Sequence record: NC_052656.1
From: Escherichia phage anhysbys
DNA length: 64,000 bases
Strand: one strand, 5' to 3'
Shown here: positions 326 through 49,852 of the stretch, piece by piece
Position numbering within the stretch: position 1 is the first letter of the stretch
Layout of the letters: each line of letters opens with the position of its first letter
The notes under the pieces: model-generated
Seen by the model: only the letters and a program-made list of their open reading frames with translations
Databases searched by the model: none
What the model was told of the DNA's origin: nothing
Made by a program: the position numbers and the translations under genes

Positions 326-736
326 TTAGTTTACATCGTTTAGAGCATTACCAATCTTTAAGATAATAACATCATTAAGAGCTTCTTCTCCATTAAGACC
401 AGAGAAAGCAGGAGTAACGAAAGTTACCATATAATAATGGTCTTCTTGTAGGATTGCGATAACGCCGTCTAGTTTAACATCTCCTGTGAAACGAAAAACT
501 TTCAACTTTTGTTCTAAAGGAAGATCTCCTTCAACATTTAAAACCATATCTCCGACACCAAACTTTTCTGCCCCGATGTAGATGTAAGCTTGGTCCTCTT
601 TTTTATGATAATACAATGTTGCTTGTTTGTCTTGTAGTGTTGTGATACCAAACACATCTACATCAATAATATTTTTCAAAAATTCTCCTCCCAAATCCAA
701 TAATTGTCTACATAAGTGGGATGCCTTTTGTCCCAC
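326..736 (-). CDS. hypothetical protein
   Basis: ORF track 136 aa; start uncertain (ATG at 736 overlaps upstream gene by 61 nt; in-frame TTG near 683 follows GGAGGAG). Confidence 0.55.
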   Translation of the reverse strand: MGQKASHLCRQLLDLGGEFLKNIIDVDVFGITTLQDKQATLYYHKKEDQAYIYIGAEKFGVGDMVLNVEGDLPLEQKLKVFRFTGDVKLDGVIAILQEDHYYMVTFVTPAFSGLNGEEALNDVIILKIGNALNDVN

Positions 737-1044
737 TCTTTTCTAGCCCAAGCTACGGCTGCTACCAATACATCTCCATGACAAGGTTGAGGTGAGCAGA
801 AGCAAACTAAATCTTTCCCTTCTAACTCTAATAAATCTTCAAGAGTGATCTTACCACAACGAATTTGCTCCCACAACCACTCTTTATACCTTTGTATGGT
901 TGATCCTCGTGGTTCATCATCTTTTAACTTAAAAGGATTTGCAAACTTAGAGGCTTTTAGTCCCATATGTGGCATTGCTCTACCAATATAAACAGCACTC
1001 TCTGGGATTGTTTTGCCTAAATGGTAAAAGTTTAATACCTTCAT
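676..1044 (-). CDS. hypothetical protein with Cys/His motif (CFCSPQPCHGD)
   Basis: ORF track 122 aa; co-oriented tight packing. Confidence 0.55.
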   Translation of the reverse strand: MKVLNFYHLGKTIPESAVYIGRAMPHMGLKASKFANPFKLKDDEPRGSTIQRYKEWLWEQIRCGKITLEDLLELEGKDLVCFCSPQPCHGDVLVAAVAWARKEWDKRHPTYVDNYWIWEENF

Positions 1045-6736: not shown

Positions 6737-6901
6737 ATGATCTCTTTAGAATCAATAGCTTTTAAGAAAGGGTATACCGCAGGGTTCAAGTTTGGTATGT
6801 TTAATAAAGTAAATCCATATTGTCCAAAGACACACAAAAAGGAATTCGAAGAATGGGAAGATGGATTTTCTAAAGGCTATCAGGCAAAAGGTTGGTTGTA
6901 A
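6737..6901 (+). CDS. hypothetical protein
   Basis: Track frame; start refined to MISLESIAF after AAGAGGAG. Confidence 0.45.
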   Translation: MISLESIAFKKGYTAGFKFGMFNKVNPYCPKTHKKEFEEWEDGFSKGYQAKGWL

Positions 6902-6910
6902 GGAGAGAAT

Positions 6911-7075
6911 ATGATTTTAAACTTCATCATCAACTTGTGTTTGACATTGGGATTACTCTGTGCAATAGTATCCCCTCTGGTTGGTGAATATTGTTCTGAA
7001 CTGGCGATGTTTATAGTTCTTGGTGCGGCTATTGCTAATATGTTTGTCGCTGCGATTTGTATGTTGTGGGAATAG
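6911..7075 (+). CDS. small hydrophobic (membrane) protein (~54 aa)
   Basis: Own translation MILNFIINLCLTLGLLCAIVSPLVGEYCSELAMFIVLGAAIANMF...; AGGAGAG RBS. Confidence 0.4.
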   Translation: MILNFIINLCLTLGLLCAIVSPLVGEYCSELAMFIVLGAAIANMFVAAICMLWE

Positions 7076-7086
7076 GAGGGAAGTTT

Positions 7087-7443
7087 ATGAAAAAACTAAT
7101 CTTAGCCACATTGCTGGCTACCGTAAGCTTCACCACTTACGCTCAAAAATTTGTAGCAGTTAAAACGGATATTGGTAAAGATGTTGTGATCACAGGCAAC
7201 AAATTTTACTATACACCTGGAAATGGTGTTCTGGAAGAGTGCCAAGATGTTGAGGCATATACAGGAAAAGAAGATAACACGGAACGTCCTTTTTATTCGA
7301 TTATAGCTACTTGCAAAAATGAAATAGTAGCTATTAAACAATACAAAGATGCCCCTGGAGGAGAATACTTGTTAGTCAAGAATATTAAGAGTGAAAAAAC
7401 TGCAAAGTTTACAGTAATTATTTTAAAAGGAGAAACGTTCTAA
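7087..7443 (+). CDS. putative secreted protein
   Basis: Track frame; start refined to MKKLILATLLATVSFTTYAQ (signal peptide) after AGGAGGG. Confidence 0.6.
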   Translation: MKKLILATLLATVSFTTYAQKFVAVKTDIGKDVVITGNKFYYTPGNGVLEECQDVEAYTGKEDNTERPFYSIIATCKNEIVAIKQYKDAPGGEYLLVKNIKSEKTAKFTVIILKGETF

Positions 7444-8582
7444 TGAAATACACTATTTTTGGAGATGTAGCTGTTGTAAATAAGGAATATGGCGTTGAAG
7501 CTAATAAACTTCCTGCTGGAGTTTGGGTTGTCAACTGCGATCCGCACGGTAACTACTCTTTAGTGCGTGGCGAAAGTTTCTCTCTTCCGAACACTCTTTA
7601 TGGGGAAACTAAAGATCGCGCCGCACATGTTATTAAAACATTTGCTCGTCGTAGTAAAGAAGGTAAAAATACTGGGGTGTTACTGACAGGGACAAAGGGC
7701 AGTGGTAAGACGATGTTAGCTAAACTGATTAGCATGTCCCTAATGTCCACAGAAGGTTTAGGTATTCCAACCATTTTGGTGACACAGCCTTACACAGATG
7801 CTGGATTCTTAGAATTTATGAGTAAAATTACAGATCGTGCTGTTGTTTTATTTGACGAATTTGATAAAGTGTACGCTAAGAAAGAAGATCAGGAAGCACT
7901 GTTGACCTTGTTGGATGGAACAGGAAGTGGGAATAAACTTTACATCCTAACTAAAAATAGTGGTTATATCTCGGAATATTTTGTAAACCGTCCTAGTCGT
8001 ATCTATTATAGTTTCAATTACGATAAACTGTCTAGTGAAACTATGTTAGATTACTTGGATAAGAACTTGGTAAATAAAAAACACGTAGATAACTTCCAAC
8101 GTTTATGGGATGTTAGCACAGAGTTGTCTTTCGATGTTATTCAAGGTATTGTAGAAGAATTGAATTTCTATCCAAAAATGACTTTTAAAGAATGTCTTGA
8201 AATGATGGGTATTTCTTTAGGCAACGATGCTAAATGGAATGTGGCTTCTATCGTAGCTAATGGCAAAACCTTGAAGGTGAATTGGATCAATAACTGGCAC
8301 GACTTCACCCCTACTAAGTTTTTGTCGGGTGCTTGTTCCCTGAACATATATCTGCAAAGCTTGAAAGATGATGAAGTGGAAGCAATGGAAACCAACAGTT
8401 ATGTTATCCTGGATGAAGATGGTGATCCACATATTGATCTATGTGCAACTGCTGATGGTCTAACTTGTGATCTGATTGAAGGTGGTAAGATTCTGGTGAT
8501 GAGCACCACACCAGGAAACACTCTGCGAGTGGTACTGGAGCCTGTAACACAACGTTCCACCACACTGGGTAGCGTGTTCTAA
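7443..8582 (+). CDS. AAA+/P-loop ATPase
   Basis: Walker A GTKGSGKT, Walker B-like VVLFDEFDK; 379 aa. Confidence 0.7.
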   Translation: MKYTIFGDVAVVNKEYGVEANKLPAGVWVVNCDPHGNYSLVRGESFSLPNTLYGETKDRAAHVIKTFARRSKEGKNTGVLLTGTKGSGKTMLAKLISMSLMSTEGLGIPTILVTQPYTDAGFLEFMSKITDRAVVLFDEFDKVYAKKEDQEALLTLLDGTGSGNKLYILTKNSGYISEYFVNRPSRIYYSFNYDKLSSETMLDYLDKNLVNKKHVDNFQRLWDVSTELSFDVIQGIVEELNFYPKMTFKECLEMMGISLGNDAKWNVASIVANGKTLKVNWINNWHDFTPTKFLSGACSLNIYLQSLKDDEVEAMETNSYVILDEDGDPHIDLCATADGLTCDLIEGGKILVMSTTPGNTLRVVLEPVTQRSTTLGSVF

Positions 8583-8587
8583 TAAAG

Positions 8588-8612
8588 ATGCCCCACAAGG
8601 GGCATTTCTTAT
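8588..8612 (+). terminator. rho-independent terminator-like hairpin
   Basis: GATGCCCC-ACAA-GGGGCATT then TCTTAT, after ATPase gene. Confidence 0.5.
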
Positions 8613-8623
8613 AGGATGAAATC

Positions 8624-9832
8624 ATGAGTAAAGCTAAAAGTTGGGAAGAATATAAAGCAGAATGCGAGATCATAGCTCTCTCTAAAGGATATAAAATTTT
8701 AGGCCATAAAGAATGGAAAGGGTGTGAGACTAAACTCCTGATAGAATGTCCTGTGCACGGTGTATGGGATACTTGTAAAATAGCTAACTTTAAAAGTGGG
8801 AAGTCTTGCCCTTCTTGTGGTGAATTAACAAAAAGGGAGAAGAGAACGAAGAGCAGGGAGGACCAAGAGAAAGAGTGTGAAGAAGAAGCGTTAAAAAGAG
8901 GTTGGCGCTTCTTGGGTATCTACGGAGAATGGCTCAAAGCTAAAAAGACACGAGTAATCTTACGTTGTGACAGGGGTCACGAGTTTAACACATCTACCAT
9001 AGACAACTTTAAGAATAATAAACAAGGTTGTCCAGTTTGTCGTTTAGAGGATATAGGTAAACACCATAAGCTTTCAGACGATCAGCACATACAAGATTTC
9101 ATGCGTACGGGTGTGTTTCCCGAAGGCACTACCTTCACTAATACAGGGGAAAGAGCTGGGAGGAGCGAAATACTTTGGAGTGTATTTTGCCCTATCTGTG
9201 CTATAGATGAGTTTTCCAAAGCTGGGGTAGGAACGGGATATTTTATCGGTAGAGGTAGTTCATTAAAACAGGGTATGCGCCCTTGTCGTTGTTCTGCCAG
9301 TTACAAATATTCTGAAGAAGAGATGACATTTAGAGCAAAAAGTGACGTAGAACGTAGAGGGTACGTGTGGTTGGGGTGGATCGGGAAAGCTTCTATACTT
9401 GGGGATTTTGAATATGGTTGCAAGGATCATGGGAAACATGTGTGTAGTGCTAATAATTGGTTAAATAAGGGGTGTGGTTGCCCTGGTTGTGCAGGTATGA
9501 ATCAACAACAAGCCTACATTAATTATATTTACGATGAGCAAGATATTATCTGTGCACTGAAGTTTGGTATTGCTAATAATAGTGATCGCCGTATCAAAGA
9601 ACAAAATAGTCGTAATGTGTTTACTATGAAACAGAACCAAGTGTGGCACTTCCCTACTGTGAAGCAATGCAAAGATGCAGAGAAGCGTTGTAAACGTGTC
9701 CTTAACACGGAAGCGGTGAGCAAATATGCTATGCCAGATGGCTACACAGAAACAGTAGAGTTATCTTGCATGGCCTCAATACAAAACATTTATAAACTTT
9801 ATGGTGGAATATTACAGGAGGAAACATGTTAG
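8624..9832 (+). CDS. cysteine-rich zinc-ribbon repeat protein with C-terminal GIY-YIG-like segment
   Basis: Repeated C..HG...CP.CG / C.RGHEF...CPVCR modules; C-terminal YINYIYDEQD ... FGIANNSDRR resembles GIY / YIG+Arg motifs. Confidence 0.6.
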   Translation: MSKAKSWEEYKAECEIIALSKGYKILGHKEWKGCETKLLIECPVHGVWDTCKIANFKSGKSCPSCGELTKREKRTKSREDQEKECEEEALKRGWRFLGIYGEWLKAKKTRVILRCDRGHEFNTSTIDNFKNNKQGCPVCRLEDIGKHHKLSDDQHIQDFMRTGVFPEGTTFTNTGERAGRSEILWSVFCPICAIDEFSKAGVGTGYFIGRGSSLKQGMRPCRCSASYKYSEEEMTFRAKSDVERRGYVWLGWIGKASILGDFEYGCKDHGKHVCSANNWLNKGCGCPGCAGMNQQQAYINYIYDEQDIICALKFGIANNSDRRIKEQNSRNVFTMKQNQVWHFPTVKQCKDAEKRCKRVLNTEAVSKYAMPDGYTETVELSCMASIQNIYKLYGGILQEETC

Positions 9833-10204: not shown

Positions 10205-10393
10205 ATGGCACGTTTAGCAGATAACCCTGTATTCTACCCCGTTCTTGATCTTTATGATGAATTGACATATGTTGTGGAGCGGTATAATTACAATGAAGAC
10301 CTCTTGGAGACAAACCTTAAAGTAGTTCTGATGAAAGCCTATCAGCAAGGGCAACGTGAAATTTTGGAGAGTATGAAAAATGCGAATAACTGA
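10205..10393 (+). CDS. hypothetical protein
   Basis: Track frame; start refined to MARLADNP after AAAGGAG. Confidence 0.5.
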   Translation: MARLADNPVFYPVLDLYDELTYVVERYNYNEDLLETNLKVVLMKAYQQGQREILESMKNANN

Positions 10394-10922
10394 TGAATAT
10401 GTATTCTTCTTTTCACATAAAGATGTGTTTAGTAATTGGTATATTGCACCCTTTACAGAAACCGAACCAGGTTACAATCAGACATTTAATTGTGTCGAAC
10501 AATACATGATGTGGCGTAAAGCTTTGCTTTTTAATGATCACAACACTGCACAGGCTATTCTGACTCATAGTTTGATACGGAAAGATGAGAAGATCCAAGC
10601 TTATTACAAACGTATGGGTAGGGCAGTGTCAGATTTTGATAACAACGTATGGGAAGAGAACCGTGAGCGTATTGTTATGCGAGGTTTATGCTTGAAATAT
10701 GTACAGAATCCAGATTTGTATGCAGACTTACACCTTTACCAATACAAAACGTTTGTTGAAGCAAGTCCTTACGATAAGGTTTACGGTATTGGAATGGGAA
10801 TGTATGAACCAGGGGTGCTAAATCCGGTCAACTGGAAAGGGCAAAATCTTTTAGGTAAATATCATAACAAACTGATCGAAATACTTTTCCCAGACAAAAT
10901 ACCGCAGAGACGATATTTGTGA
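10380..10922 (+). CDS. NADAR-domain (YbiA-like) protein
   Basis: FSN(W/F), CVEQYMMWRKA, MGR, Y(D/G)IGMG and LLGKYH.. blocks align with E. coli YbiA family from memory. Confidence 0.75.
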   Translation: MRITDEYVFFFSHKDVFSNWYIAPFTETEPGYNQTFNCVEQYMMWRKALLFNDHNTAQAILTHSLIRKDEKIQAYYKRMGRAVSDFDNNVWEENRERIVMRGLCLKYVQNPDLYADLHLYQYKTFVEASPYDKVYGIGMGMYEPGVLNPVNWKGQNLLGKYHNKLIEILFPDKIPQRRYL

Positions 10923-41449: not shown

Positions 41450-42265
41450 TTATTTGTTTAAGTGGTCTTCGACCATTTTAATGAAACCTTCATTGCTGAA
41501 GGCTGTTGCAGCTTTTTCTCGGTAAACAAAAACTCCACGATCTTCATAGAGAAGTGTTTCTTCGTAATTAACTCCAGGGTTAACTACAACCATTTTTGTA
41601 CCCATACTAAGTGCAGGAAATAATTCCCAATTAAAATTGATAATTTGGTTTGAACATCCTACTACTACAACCAAATCTTGCATGGTCAAAGTATCGAACA
41701 AGTGAGCCATATCTGCATACAAAGGTGCAGCCTCACCAAAAAATACAACATTAGGCTTCACCCAGTTATAATCATCTATGTTTATACTATTGTAACCAAT
41801 ATCTACCAGTGTTTTGTAATCTCCAGGATGCATACGGTAAACTACTTCAGGAAGATAGCCGTGTACGTGAATAACAGAATCTCTGTCTACACCTGCTCGC
41901 TCTAGTAGATCATCAACGTTTGTTGTCAAGTTTACTATTTGGTTAGGATATTCCTTAAACCACTTTGCTATTTGAATATGTGCAGCATTAGGTTGTACAT
42001 CTTTAAGCTCAACACGTCTTTTGTTATAAAATTCGTGTGTTTTGGCATACAAATCCATACCGTTCTCGTCTACACCACCGACCACTGGAAGATCTGGAGA
42101 TGTTCTAACACGATAACCTGCTTGGAAAGCTCCAATATCGCAGACCTCTTCTAAATCATATTCTTCCCATAAAGCACGACCACTATCTGTGTCTGTTCTA
42201 AATGTTCGAATCCCACTGTCTGCACTTAAACCTGCACCGCTTACAAAAATCACTCGTCTTGGCAT
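41450..42265 (-). CDS. SIR2-family NAD-dependent protein
   Basis: N-terminal VIFVSGAGLSADSGIRTFR resembles sirtuin GAG(I/L)S..GIP.FR NAD-binding motif; 271 aa. Confidence 0.7.
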   Translation of the reverse strand: MPRRVIFVSGAGLSADSGIRTFRTDTDSGRALWEEYDLEEVCDIGAFQAGYRVRTSPDLPVVGGVDENGMDLYAKTHEFYNKRRVELKDVQPNAAHIQIAKWFKEYPNQIVNLTTNVDDLLERAGVDRDSVIHVHGYLPEVVYRMHPGDYKTLVDIGYNSINIDDYNWVKPNVVFFGEAAPLYADMAHLFDTLTMQDLVVVVGCSNQIINFNWELFPALSMGTKMVVVNPGVNYEETLLYEDRGVFVYREKAATAFSNEGFIKMVEDHLNK

Positions 42266-44130: not shown

Positions 44131-44536
44131 TACCCCTCCATTCAAGACAAGCCATAACTTTACGCCAATCACTTTCTGTAAGAAAAATCTCGTTTGCTTT
44201 CTTCCACAAATCTAAATCGTGAAGGGTTGGAATACGATATGTTAGTTCACAGAATCTATGCTCTTCTTCTGTAATATAACCAAAATGCAGAGCCACATCG
44301 TGAAACCAACACCAACCATGCATCTCTCGAACAACATGGTCATGTTGAGACATTATTTTATGCCGTAAACCTAACCAACAAGGAACAGATACTTTAGTAG
44401 TCTTTAATCTGTGATCAACAGTATTAGAGTATTCAATAATAGCTGTCAGTTTCAATCGTGCTTTTTCTAAATCCTCATGCGTCACTTTGAAATAACTTTC
44501 TGAAAGATATCCACACATATTAATAACCTCCTTCAA
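44123..44536 (-). CDS. hypothetical protein
   Basis: ORF track 137 aa. Confidence 0.55.
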   Translation of the reverse strand: MKEVINMCGYLSESYFKVTHEDLEKARLKLTAIIEYSNTVDHRLKTTKVSVPCWLGLRHKIMSQHDHVVREMHGWCWFHDVALHFGYITEEEHRFCELTYRIPTLHDLDLWKKANEIFLTESDWRKVMACLEWRGNE

Positions 44537-45461
44537 AAGGCTTTACTACATGTTGATTAGCTTTAAAACGTTCAACATAGTCGTTTTCGCCCATGTTTTC
44601 ATATAGCTTAATAACAACATAAAAGTTTTCCCAAGCATATTCCCTAAACCAACCACTAGTGATGGATGTGCAGACTTTAGATAAAGCCATTATAAAACTT
44701 TGCTTAGGGGTTGGACCTCCGATCTCTCCACCGAAAGGAATTTGTGAACGTTCCAAAGCCAAAACACACGCTTCTTCATAAACACCTAACAGGCGCACAT
44801 GTTTTGGTTGAGCAAAAAACTTTTCTTTGCTGGTCATAACTTCACTTCCATCTTTCATATAAGATTTATATGCTGGGGCATCCATTACCGCGATTGCTTC
44901 ATGGATAGAATCATGATCATAAACATACGGAACCTCATCACCTTTAAAAAAGTCTTTACTTTTTACGTTTAAGTTCGGATGAGAGTAAGTGTATGTTTCT
45001 TTCTCACGCAACTCATAAATACTCTTAAGATTTTCTGGGATCTTTGCGCCAAGTGACCGCATGAAATGAATATCTTTCATAGTTTTAAAGAAGTGAGGAC
45101 TATCCTTTTTAAAACGATGACTCATTTTAAGAAGGTAGAGCACATCTAAAGGAGCAACAACATGTCCAGCATAAGTTCGACGAACATCATCAGAATCTTC
45201 ACAATAACTAATCAAAGCTTCTGTGCTATCTCCTTGAGAAGCAATATCGTATTCCAAATGTGCACCAGCTATCATTTTGACATGGCCTTTGTTCCCTTTA
45301 CGTTCTACAAGTTCAACAAACTCATCTTGAGAGAACATTTTTGATAATTCTTCCCACTCTTGTTCTGTACACAGGTAATCTAAATCTACACAAGGGCGAT
45401 ACAAGTCTTTTCCCATGTCCATAGCATGAATTTGTAATGCACGGCTACCAATTAACACCAT
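44520..45461 (-). CDS. hypothetical protein (possible nucleotidyltransferase-like N-terminus)
   Basis: ORF track 313 aa; N-terminal LIGSRAL...DMGKD...DLDYL loosely resembles GS..D.D motif; TTGACA-17-TAAACT promoter upstream. Confidence 0.55.
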   Translation of the reverse strand: MVLIGSRALQIHAMDMGKDLYRPCVDLDYLCTEQEWEELSKMFSQDEFVELVERKGNKGHVKMIAGAHLEYDIASQGDSTEALISYCEDSDDVRRTYAGHVVAPLDVLYLLKMSHRFKKDSPHFFKTMKDIHFMRSLGAKIPENLKSIYELREKETYTYSHPNLNVKSKDFFKGDEVPYVYDHDSIHEAIAVMDAPAYKSYMKDGSEVMTSKEKFFAQPKHVRLLGVYEEACVLALERSQIPFGGEIGGPTPKQSFIMALSKVCTSITSGWFREYAWENFYVVIKLYENMGENDYVERFKANQHVVKPFEGGY

Positions 45462-45551: not shown

Positions 45552-45824
45552 CTAACACATTGAGGAAGAAGAGATCCAAACACCTCTTGTGGTTAAACCA
45601 TTTTCATCCAACTCTACACCATAATCTTCACAAATGAAATCAATATAGTGATCTGCGGCTGGCGTTCCTGTAGGGTAATAAGTTTCTCCGTTACCGTAGT
45701 CACCTATCCAAGCTTGTTCCTGAAACTGTTCACAAAGTTCTTCAATTTCCTTACGAAACTTTCTTTGTGCTTGTTCCATCTCTTTAACTTTCTTTTTTAT
45801 CAGCAGTTCGCCTTCAGACTCCAC
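45552..45824 (-). CDS. small acidic protein with C-terminal GVWISSSSMC
   Basis: ORF track 90 aa; terminator hairpin downstream. Confidence 0.55.
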   Translation of the reverse strand: MESEGELLIKKKVKEMEQAQRKFRKEIEELCEQFQEQAWIGDYGNGETYYPTGTPAADHYIDFICEDYGVELDENGLTTRGVWISSSSMC

Positions 45825-45833
45825 AATCTCTCC

Positions 45834-46052
45834 TTAACAGCTACTACTGTGCCAAACGCCTTGAGAATTAACGACGAAACCATCATCACCTTCACCATAA
45901 CAAGAAGAGGATTGCCAATCTTCAAAACAGATTGCGTCATTTTCTAAACTAAGACCAAAACCAGCATCTTCAGCTTCTTTTGTAAGTTCGTCCACTAAAG
46001 CCATAATAGCTTGGGCTTTTTCAGTTAATTCTTCAACATTACGATCACTCAT
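45834..46052 (-). CDS. small acidic protein with C-terminal GVWHSSSC
   Basis: Track frame 45834-46094; start refined to MSDRNVEEL after AGAGGAGAAA. Confidence 0.5.
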   Translation of the reverse strand: MSDRNVEELTEKAQAIMALVDELTKEAEDAGFGLSLENDAICFEDWQSSSCYGEGDDGFVVNSQGVWHSSSC

Positions 46053-46360
46053 TAGTATTTCTCCTCTGGTTGGAAAACTGAACGACAGGCCCACATAGAA
46101 GCTTCTTTCAACTTAGTCTTTGCTATTGAAATTTGGTCAAGGCGGGTGGATATATTGGTAGACTCTTCCAAATCTTCACAATCATCCAGTTCAGCCCACA
46201 ATTCAGACATTAGAGCATCAAAGATTAATCCTAATCGAACTTCAGCATCTTTAATAGCATTCACTTTACCAATTTTGTCATCGGTATGCGGTTTATAACC
46301 TTTGATATCTTCGATTCCCACTTTACCTCCTATTAACAACTTAAAGAAGATGGATGCCAA
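46052..46360 (-). CDS. hypothetical protein
   Basis: ORF track 102 aa. Confidence 0.5.
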   Translation of the reverse strand: MASIFFKLLIGGKVGIEDIKGYKPHTDDKIGKVNAIKDAEVRLGLIFDALMSELWAELDDCEDLEESTNISTRLDQISIAKTKLKEASMWACRSVFQPEEKY

Positions 46361-46530
46361 TTTGTTCCAGTATTCTCATTTTCATCTTCTGGATCATAAT
46401 AACCTCCCATCCCATATTCAGGGGAGAAACTGAAACCTTCACCAGTCTCGTCTGCTAACTGTTCTGCTTCCGCTAAAGCCTCATAAGCTGCTTTTACGGC
46501 TTCTTCTACTGTTTTAAACTTGGTCGTCAT
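46333..46530 (-). CDS. small acidic protein with C-terminal NWHPSSLSC
   Basis: ORF track 65 aa. Confidence 0.5.
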   Translation of the reverse strand: MTTKFKTVEEAVKAAYEALAEAEQLADETGEGFSFSPEYGMGGYYDPEDENENTGTNWHPSSLSC

Positions 46531-46804: not shown

Positions 46805-47295
46805 AAAACCTCCTCAATCTTGTAGTTTGACTCCATCTCCAACACATTTCCACGAACGTCTCTCCGAAGAAAGGCATAAGCTTTATTAGGTATTGTAGAC
46901 TCATATTTAACCATATCTGGCACAGCAAAAGATACTACTACTCCTGCTGGGCTTCTGTCAAGAGCCTTATTAATATTTCTAAGGATATCGTTAGCCAAAA
47001 TTTCTGCCAATTCTCCAAGAACGGTTTCGGTTATATCTTTATATCCCATTAAGTATTTGTTGATATCTTTCATCTCTGTATTGTTCAGAGTATAATCCAA
47101 AGGATAGAAATTCAAAGCGGAGTCACTTTTATGTGTCCACATGAAATGCACCCGATCCGAGCAGAATCGTAACCCTCTTTGAAGAATATCTTCTACAACA
47201 GGCAGAATTTCTTTTGTCACATCATTAACCATGTTGTAATCTAAGATTTCTGCCAAGTTTGTTCTTTGTTCACCACGTTTACGTTTAGGAATCAC
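46783..47295 (-). CDS. hypothetical protein
   Basis: ORF track 170 aa. Confidence 0.55.
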   Translation of the reverse strand: MIPKRKRGEQRTNLAEILDYNMVNDVTKEILPVVEDILQRGLRFCSDRVHFMWTHKSDSALNFYPLDYTLNNTEMKDINKYLMGYKDITETVLGELAEILANDILRNINKALDRSPAGVVVSFAVPDMVKYESTIPNKAYAFLRRDVRGNVLEMESNYKIEEVLWQSSDQ

Positions 47296-47890
47296 TTGTT
47301 ATTGCCCTCATTACCAAAGGTCGTAGAAAATCGTAAATCTCTTGTTTTGTTTTCCCACGAATGTTTAAACAAGGAACATTATTGGCTTTAGCTATCTTCC
47401 AAGCCGTAGCTGTTCCACCTTTTGCATCTCCATGTTTATCAGTATTAGCACAAGCCAACAAGAAACATGATGGAGCAGGATTCTCCAAATCTCTACCTAA
47501 CACTTGATGCACATTACGTTGGTGCAATTTTCTAGCACCCTGCTTAAGCTTTTCATAGGCTGGGTGAACATCTTTGATCCATTGCACAGAGATAGCATAG
47601 TTCATTGTATCTGGTTTTGCAAGAACAATAACATCCCCTGGAATCTGATTACCTTTGAAATTTTCCCAAGGAACATAAATCTCCTTGTTAGTAGGATTTT
47701 CAGACTCTTGGACACCTGTTTCAAAAGCAGAATCACTACCCTCTGCCTTCCCAGACCTTAATTTAAACCCAAGGTTTGAAAGCCATTTCCCTATGCCTAC
47801 CATCAAAGCCCACTCTTCTTCGGATATGTCTCTACTTCCAACTCCCGTATAGAACAGTTCTGCCATAATCACCTCAACAAGTAATTTCAA
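47285..47890 (-). CDS. DprA/Smf-like Rossmann-fold protein
   Basis: TGVGSRDIS..., RSGKAEGSDSAFETG, GGTATAWKIAKANNVPCLNI resemble DprA/SLOG-type nucleotide-binding fold (by eye). Confidence 0.5.
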   Translation of the reverse strand: MKLLVEVIMAELFYTGVGSRDISEEEWALMVGIGKWLSNLGFKLRSGKAEGSDSAFETGVQESENPTNKEIYVPWENFKGNQIPGDVIVLAKPDTMNYAISVQWIKDVHPAYEKLKQGARKLHQRNVHQVLGRDLENPAPSCFLLACANTDKHGDAKGGTATAWKIAKANNVPCLNIRGKTKQEIYDFLRPLVMRAITSDS

Positions 47891-49261: not shown

Positions 49262-49852
49262 TCAAATTATTAACGAAACCGCATGACTAAATCTTGGTTC
49301 AGATATAACCTCTGCTACAGTCACATATGTATCGTGCAGCCAAAAAGATTCTACTCTACAAACACAAATACCGTTGATAATGAAATCTACACAGGCTTTA
49401 TTATTTTCGCACACTTGTTGACTATAAACAACCCCTAAAGAGTCATAAAGTGATCTCACTGTTGCTACCATTTCATCTGTTTCGTCTTCCTGTGAAACAA
49501 AGAAAACGAATACAGACAAGTTATTAGCGAAAGTATTGCTATTCTCTACTTCAACCGACTTACAAGGTAAAAAGGAGTAATATTTACCGTTAGGTATCAA
49601 TTTCGCCTCAACCTGGTTAAGTATGCTTTGAGATGGTTTTGTTACATAAAAAAGATTTTCTGTTGGGTTTTCAACATTGCTCCTTACTATGCAACGAGTG
49701 GGGTTCGAAGGATCAAAAACATGATCGAAATCGACACACACAGGTAAGTTAACAACTTTAAACTTTTTGCTAAGAATGCTTACTGCTGTAAAAATCAAAC
49801 CAGCATTTATTTTGCCAGTGAAAGTTGAACGCATAACTACTCCTCGGATCAT
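49262..49852 (-). CDS. hypothetical protein
   Basis: ORF track 196 aa. Confidence 0.55.
   Translation of the reverse strand: MIRGVVMRSTFTGKINAGLIFTAVSILSKKFKVVNLPVCVDFDHVFDPSNPTRCIVRSNVENPTENLFYVTKPSQSILNQVEAKLIPNGKYYSFLPCKSVEVENSNTFANNLSVFVFFVSQEDETDEMVATVRSLYDSLGVVYSQQVCENNKACVDFIINGICVCRVESFWLHDTYVTVAEVISEPRFSHAVSLII

Follow-up and report, generated by a model that had tools for sequence, protein, structure and literature searches.

We analysed a window of 64,000 nucleotides (nt) from the genome of Escherichia phage anhysbys (sequence record NC_052656.1), and describe here a small minus-strand gene in it that encodes a protein of the SLOG superfamily. The gene had been listed as an open reading frame (ORF) at 47285..47890, coding for 201 amino acids (aa) from a TTG start, and the initial annotation had likened it by eye to the DprA/SLOG nucleotide-binding Rossmann fold on account of three motifs. 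The ORF proved to be real, and all three motifs lie inside it: GVGSRD (residues 8-13), SGKAEGSDSAFETG (38-51) and GGTATAWKIA (150-159), numbered here and below from an ATG rather than from the TTG. The stop at 47285 stood as listed, but the start probably has to be moved. An in-frame ATG at 47866 lies eight codons downstream of the TTG at 47890. Since a Shine-Dalgarno-like GAGGTG precedes this ATG, and since the RefSeq orthologues in the phages phAPEC8 and tuntematon are annotated as an equivalent coding sequence (CDS) of 582 nt, we take the CDS to be 47285..47866 (193 aa), and the ATG is most likely the true start. A start at the TTG would give a 17-nt overlap with the upstream gene, which ends at 47874.

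The SLOG gene sits within a tightly packed leftward operon, where the last 11 nt of its CDS also belong to the next gene, which starts with a GTG at 47295. The leftward block that holds it also carries genes for ribonucleotide reductase (RNR), ThyX, dTDP-rhamnose synthesis, PhoH, an HslV-like peptidase, methyltransferases, a Ser/Thr phosphatase and Sir2. The window is that of a phAPEC8-like E. coli myophage (Phapecoctavirus), a genus whose genomes measure about 150 kb, and identity over the SLOG region was 99.3-99.4% to members such as phAPEC8 and tuntematon. For the protein itself, counterparts with 100% identity were found in vB_EcoM_EP57 and vB_EcoM-Ro121c4YLVW.

We observed that PHROG 768, "DprA-like DNA recombination-mediator protein", matched the whole length of the SLOG protein (E 2e-62), and the RefSeq orthologues in phAPEC8 and tuntematon already bear this name. 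A word-indexed search returned 276 relatives, while in an exhaustive profile search 5954 clusters (50% identity) passed a threshold of E<=1e-3 and 2016 passed the stricter E<=1e-30; nearly all are single-domain proteins of 170-210 aa. With tblastn, a homologue was found in 1441 of 50,697 phage records (about 3%), in phage types that include rV5-like, PAK_P1-like, T4-like, phiKZ-like and N4-like, and the labels on these homologues are "hypothetical" or variants of "DprA-like". A search of NCBIfam with the SLOG protein gave no match. The PHROG 768 match, the thousands of homologue clusters, the 1441 phage records and a confident AlphaFold2 model establish that this is a real gene and no chance ORF; its family is very large and specific to phages. 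The fold assignment made in the initial annotation reproduces existing database annotation and is not new; the novelty is low, since contexts of the SLOG family have already been described computationally.

The AlphaFold2 model, for which a 37-sequence alignment of family members was used as input, had a predicted local distance difference test score (pLDDT) of 94.4 and a predicted template modelling score (pTM) of 0.90, and showed an alternating strand/helix Rossmannoid. When this model was compared with the PDB using Foldseek, the top match was Helicobacter pylori DprA (E 6e-6), including the entry of that protein with single-stranded DNA (ssDNA), 4ljl, followed by ShosA and Streptococcus pneumoniae DprA. 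Later ranks were taken by the molybdenum-cofactor carrier protein (MCP), TM1055, the SLOG domains of ThsA, PpnN and LOG, and the predicted structure by itself does not single out DprA among SLOG members. A structure search of BFVD returned only other unnamed phage homologues, and a single-sequence PDB search had, by chance, selenide water dikinase as its sole match. Assignment to the SLOG superfamily is secure: the predicted fold is a three-layer alpha/beta Rossmannoid, and the glycine-rich, nucleotide-contacting loops that follow strand 2 and precede the penultimate helix are present, with S38-G-x-A-x-G-x-D45 and G150-G-T152 being 96-100% conserved among 262 family representatives (the set used for all conservation figures given here). 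The structure prediction and profile searches that had been proposed as a check of the DprA/SLOG fold brought up no unrelated fold, and the DprA structures at the head of the Foldseek ranking, together with matches to the Pfam DprA family in 22 of the 37 members, bear that fold out. We conclude that the product of this gene is a member of the SLOG superfamily with a single domain, and that it belongs to the DprA-like branch.

We further estimated how far the resemblance to DprA extends along the sequence. The Pfam DprA family (PF02481) was the only recurrent Pfam match among the 37 relatives; the 22 matches were those at E<=0.01 (best E 2.6e-7), mostly over the same N-terminal stretch. The SLOG protein of phage anhysbys scored 12.7 bits against a gathering cut-off of 29.6 (E 0.073), over positions 50-93 only of the hidden Markov model. 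With hhalign, only the N-terminal 47 residues aligned to a 5-member DprA profile (probability 66%), and a profile-versus-PDB search also covered only the first 45 or so residues. Since both searches stop there, the alignment of the C-terminal motifs is that of MAFFT E-INS-i alone, in which phage members were aligned with the Rossmann domains of E. coli Smf, 3MAJ, 3UQZ, 8ZVA and 4LJK. The DprA structures used for comparison were those of H. pylori (4LJK/4LJL/4LJR), S. pneumoniae (3UQZ) and Rhodopseudomonas palustris (3MAJ).

In the MAFFT alignment, four DprA motifs were found in the same order in the phage family: G10-S-R12, R37-S-G-x-A-x-G-x-D45, L114-x-x-R117-N118 and K149-G-G-T152. According to Wang et al. 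2014, DprA can be recognised by two motifs, G-S/T/A-R (Arg52) and F/L/Y-x-x-R-N/D (Phe140, Arg143, Asn144), for which they proposed diagnostic value; they showed that both form the pocket of H. pylori DprA that holds one thymine of ssDNA, and the Rossmann domain of this protein binds ssDNA by itself. The residues aligned with the phage protein include these base holders (R52, F140, R143 and N144). The G and R of G10-S11-R12 were 100% and the S 96% conserved, and the loop aligned with motif 1 in 5 bona fide DprAs. In the counterpart of motif 2, as placed by the MAFFT alignment only, position 114 was L in 90% and otherwise M, A or F, while R117, N118 and the nearby Q121 were 100% conserved. The R37-D45 loop contains the GxD/E signature common to the YpsA clade. 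Conservation was also 100% for G10, R12, R37, G39, A41, G43, D45, G124, G150, G151 and T152, and at least 95% for H115, W67, H101, S133, T154 and N168; such a pattern is typical of a specific ligand site. Because the four motifs align in order and the pocket residues are near-invariant, the base pocket of DprA is taken to be retained and elaborated in the phage family.

The remaining modules of DprA were absent. In comparison to DprA, the phage protein has neither the SAM domain nor the C-terminal DNA-binding domain and consists of a single domain of 193 aa. The DprA segment after strand 6, 'PG...G..LI..GA.LV', which we take to contribute to the dimer/RecA interface of S. pneumoniae DprA, has no phage counterpart; a single, poorly conserved helix (174-192) is found instead. 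The middle of the domain is also rebuilt, with a PWxxF insert carrying the invariant W67, an HP motif and the extra invariants R37, H115 and Q121, and the invariant Glu196 and Pro203 of the middle strand of DprA (E. coli numbering) are missing. The median isoelectric point (pI) of the family was 7.9 (range 5.7-9.4), as against 8.7-10.5 for DprA Rossmann domains, which argues mildly against general DNA binding.

Two further assignments were evaluated and rejected. ShosA, the antitoxin of ShosTA (8ZVA, 9VZO), is a host DprA-like protein that needs ssDNA binding, dimerisation and RecA binding. Its SAM domain and additional C-terminal helix set it apart from the phage protein, which has no SAM domain and matched the PADLOC ShosA model only marginally, at E 0.02 over 39 residues; no ShosT-type phosphoribosyltransferase toxin gene was found adjoining the SLOG gene in the window. 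A LOG-like mechanism was rejected because the motif PGGxGTxxE is absent, and with it the catalytic Glu; the sequence reads K-G-G-T-A-T-A-W. Neither the SLOG protein nor its 37 relatives matched Pfam LOG/Lysine_decarbox (PF03641), and matches to LDcluster4 in the family were weak only.

The domains fused to the family and the genes around it were also examined. Among the 24 longest of the fetched family proteins, NADAR was the commonest fusion partner, being found in 5 proteins and in both domain orders (for instance in P0262, where it matched at E 2.6e-48, and at the N-terminus, the opposite order, in P0138 and P0214). DUF4326 was fused in 2 proteins (P0208 and P0259), and a MazG-like domain, recognised by eye rather than through a profile search, in 1.

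Two of the five NADAR fusions, P0121 (1475 aa) and P0122 (1488 aa), additionally contain YAcAr and LDcluster4 SLOG domains, with the NADAR at the C-terminus, and resemble the 'polyvalent' conflict proteins described for phages. In P0119 (residues 194-333; 8001..9002 of its locus, L002) and P0257, a domain of about 140 aa corresponding to phrog_2072 is fused C-terminally to SLOG. It carries the motif VFVFGSNLDG[FY]HGAG[SG]AG; neither Pfam nor a sequence search of the PDB gave a match to it, and the window encodes no homologue.

For the neighbourhoods, we sampled 80 IMG/VR loci with 10 kb on each side of the SLOG gene and clustered their ORFs; the loci fall into 41 lineages at 70% SLOG identity. 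At least one gene connected with nicotinamide adenine dinucleotide (NAD+) or ADP-ribose (ADPr) was present within 10 kb in 14 lineages, a count that stands without a background rate for comparison. Macro was found in 6 of the 41, at a median distance of 477 bp and 1-3 genes upstream of the SLOG gene. A NAMPT-like gene was found in 5 lineages (median 1.1 kb away), a Prs-like (PRPP-synthetase-like) gene in 4, DUF4326 in 4 and Sir2, within 10 kb, in 3. In one group of phages of Felix O1 size (L051) the order is Prs-like, NAMPT-like, Macro, SLOG, and in a 161-kb phage (L004) it is Prs-like, NAMPT-like, one unidentified gene, SLOG. By domain composition, the Prs-like and NAMPT-like pair resembles the NARP1 NAD+ reconstitution pathway. 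PhoH lay within 5 kb in 10 of the 41 lineages, sometimes directly adjacent, and the other recurrent neighbours were RNR subunits, ThyX, dCMP deaminase, ClpP, the HslV-like peptidase, a methyltransferase and a phosphatase. Within 10 kb of the SLOG gene, none of the 80 loci had a RecA homologue, and no recombinase was seen among the recurrent neighbour clusters, where RecT, Erf, Sak and Sak4 were checked only through annotation names.

Within the window itself, the SLOG gene co-occurs with stand-alone NADAR, DUF4326 and Sir2-family genes (Table 1), and the sister phage tuntematon also has a Macro gene; this genome-level co-occurrence comes from the one genome examined. No RecA homologue was found in the window, or in the complete tuntematon genome by annotation, tblastn and jackhmmer. 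The links of the phage SLOG are to NAD+/ADPr enzymes, and in these searches none to recombination genes was seen.

Table 1. Positions of the SLOG gene, its pocket motifs and its putative partners in the 64,000-nt window
Feature	Position	Strand	Remarks
Stand-alone SLOG/DprA-like protein, CDS	47285..47866, stop included	-	193 aa, ATG at 47866
Shine-Dalgarno-like GAGGTG, directly 5' of the ATG	47870..47875	-	Read from sequence
G10-S11-R12, loop after strand 1	47831..47839	-	DprA motif 1 'G-S/T/A-R' (H. pylori DprA G50-R52; Arg52 is the ssDNA pocket switch)
R37-S-G-K-A-E-G-S-D45, glycine-rich loop and helix start after strand 2	47732..47758	-	Aligns with DprA SGLARGID
L114-H-Q-R117-N118, in helix 109-123	47513..47527	-	DprA motif 2 'F/L/Y-x-x-R-N/D'
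K149-G-G-T-A-T154, loop and helix start	47405..47422	-	Aligns with DprA (R/K)SG(S/T)
Sir2-family protein, same leftward block, about 5 kb downstream of the SLOG gene	41450..42265	-	Pfam E 5.4e-22
Stand-alone NADAR protein, putative partner	10380..10922	+	Pfam E 1.8e-35
Stand-alone DUF4326 protein, putative partner	676..1044	-	Pfam E 8.3e-22

Viral SLOG domains have been surveyed before. Iyer et al. 2022 (Viruses 14:1977; PMC9503650) reported them in 7%, 19% and 31% of small, medium and jumbo phages, respectively, found them fused or adjacent to Macro, NADAR and DUF4326, and predicted that they sense or degrade ADPr derivatives of the cyclic ADP-ribose (cADPr) type, noting that this activity is experimentally uncharacterised. 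The protein described here is like these in being a stand-alone SLOG of a medium-to-large caudovirus, from a family that has Macro, NADAR and DUF4326 as fusion partners or neighbours. The same authors place most viral SLOGs in a 'YpsA-like clade', without naming this phage, whereas the nearest characterised family by sequence was here DprA, and no Pfam YpsA match was obtained with the SLOG protein or its 37 relatives. A precedent for the type of ligand is offered by the SLOG domain of Thoeris ThsA (7UXS, 8BTO), a member of the same superfamily whose pocket binds the ADPr-derived 3'cADPR; unlike the stand-alone phage protein, it is part of a host protein and is fused to a Sir2 effector.

Taking these observations together, we suggest that the SLOG protein binds or processes a soluble nucleotide derived from NAD+ or ADPr, in counter-defence and NAD+ recycling, and we put the probability of this reading at roughly 45%. 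The phage protein keeps the small DprA-type base pocket, with its GSR, SGxAxGxD, LxxRN and GGT elements, and is without the parts that make DprA a RecA loader. Its ligand would be an adenine nucleotide that host immunity makes from NAD+ or ADP-ribose, the candidates being cADPR-type signals and other ADPr derivatives. The protein would bind this immune nucleotide and may also cleave it, acting beside the phage NADAR, DUF4326, Macro and Sir2 proteins as one tool of a counter-defence and NAD+-recycling kit. The fold, the pocket motifs with their extreme conservation, the absence of the other DprA modules, the size of the family and its repeated linkage to NAD+/ADPr enzymes are observations; the identity of the ligand, the choice between binding alone and catalysis, and the anti-defence role are what we infer. 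Of the two roles that had been offered in the initial annotation, recombinase loading onto ssDNA and the binding of nucleotide-derived signals, the context favours the latter.

Several observations weigh against this suggestion. The nearest characterised family, DprA, is an ssDNA binder, and both motifs of its ssDNA pocket are intact in the phage protein. NAD+/ADPr genes were neighbours in only about one third of the lineages, many of which (the Felix O1-like ones) perhaps share their gene order by descent, and the commonest neighbours, PhoH, RNR, ThyX and dCMP deaminase, are generic nucleotide-metabolism or early genes. In the window, NADAR and DUF4326 are no neighbours of the SLOG gene but lie 36-46 kb away from it. 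The loss of the PGGxGTxxE motif leaves catalysis of the LOG kind unsupported, and a search of the literature brought up no experiment on a phage member of this SLOG family.

One alternative, in line with the database name, is a minimal DprA: an ssDNA-binding mediator that would load the host RecA on phage ssDNA, or an extra ssDNA-binding protein, during replication or recombination. Iyer et al. 2021 suggested the latter function for phage DprA/Smf proteins, and the Rossmann domain of the H. pylori protein suffices for ssDNA binding; the Foldseek ranking, headed by DprA structures that include the ssDNA-bound entry and followed by ShosA, PF02481 as the family's one recurrent Pfam match, and the conservation of both motifs of Wang et al. 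2014 all agree with such a role. However, the score of the protein itself is under the Pfam cut-off, the profile alignment covers the N-terminal 47 residues only, and the SAM domain, the C-terminal domain and the segment after strand 6 are gone. The surroundings also do not fit, since neither the 80 loci (within 10 kb) nor the sister genome offered a RecA homologue, the recurrent neighbours included no recombinase cluster, and none of the fusion partners (NADAR, DUF4326 and the MazG-like domain) is a recombination protein. With the lower pI of the family also against it, we regard a minimal DprA as unlikely.

The intact ssDNA-pocket motifs could also be reconciled with the NADAR fusions and the adjacency of Macro, if the DprA-type pocket had been re-purposed to grip ssDNA, or to recognise or cleave an ADP-ribosylated base on it. 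The SLOG protein would then help the NADAR (guanine-ADPr) and Macro (thymidine-ADPr) hydrolases to clean phage DNA attacked by DarT-type toxins. In vitro, phage NADARs act as hydrolases on guanine-ADPr in DNA (PMC11125620), DarTG1 is neutralised by orphan antitoxin-like enzymes of T4-like phages (PMC11825919), and a host defence that targets DNA is countered by a DarG2-like phage antitoxin (PMC13309987). The NADAR and DarTG papers examined do not, however, mention a SLOG or DprA partner; many members of the family are not basic, and the MazG-like and DUF4326 fusions, as well as the adjacency of Prs-like and NAMPT-like genes, point to soluble nucleotides. We therefore consider it quite unlikely; if true, it would be a counter-defence mechanism not yet described, and would explain why a domain with ssDNA motifs is repeatedly fused to NADAR. 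An enzyme of the nucleotide pool, such as an N-glycosidase or hydrolase acting on (deoxy)nucleoside monophosphates or modified nucleotides within the nucleotide-metabolism module of the phage, appears improbable. Its invariant set of polar residues looks enzyme-like, its SLOG relatives LOG and PpnN are nucleotide N-glycosidases, and PhoH, RNR, ThyX and dCMP deaminase are its commonest neighbours; but the LOG motif and its catalytic Glu are absent, Pfam LOG did not match, and nearness to such genes may merely reflect the position of the SLOG gene in the early/middle gene block.

If the protein does bind or process a soluble NAD+/ADPr-derived nucleotide, the family would make up a large class of candidate counter-defence proteins acting on immunity of the Thoeris, Sir2 or DarT type, and the present annotation would mislead both the screening of phage-therapy genomes and work on phage recombination. 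The name "recombination mediator" rests on a remote similarity to half a domain, and the genomic context gives it no support; it probably over-states what is known. Annotation pipelines propagate it, without any experiment, for a gene that about 3% of sequenced phages carry. As the SLOG protein is small and confidently folded, and its pocket is unusually invariant, binding and cleavage assays should be straightforward.

A number of further observations were made in the loci examined. In locus L005, an Acb2/Tad1-hairpin sponge gene (6886..7110) lies three genes downstream of a distant SLOG homologue and is followed by two RNA ligases and PNKP, which looks like an anti-defence and RNA-repair neighbourhood. 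The tuntematon orthologue of the DUF4326 gene in Table 1 (gp078) is named 'ribonucleotide reductase NrdA-like' in RefSeq, and this looks like a mis-annotation. The ORF at 49262..49852 of the window (minus strand, 196 aa) is a recurrent neighbour of the SLOG gene within rV5-like phages only, and its orthologue carries the RefSeq name 'histidyl tRNA synthetase'. We consider this name doubtful, since the ORF had no Pfam match at E<=0.01 and is far too short.

In tuntematon (NC_052660.1), a complete dTDP-rhamnose biosynthesis operon and several glycosyltransferases were found at about 121-125 kb and 48-52 kb; the glycosylation could be directed at the host surface or at phage DNA, and its target was not obvious. 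Downstream of the SLOG gene in the window, the minus-strand ORF at 44520..45461 (313 aa) encodes a protein in which Pfam recognises DUF7277 (E 8.5e-14) and DUF7275 (E 7.5e-76); among rV5-like lineages it is conserved as a neighbour (cluster c37). Three small, acidic, adjacent ORFs on the same strand (45552..45824, 45834..46094 and 46333..46530) have similar C-terminal ends, GVWISSSSMC, GVWHSSSC and NWHPSSLSC, and may form a paralogous family with a conserved terminal Cys.

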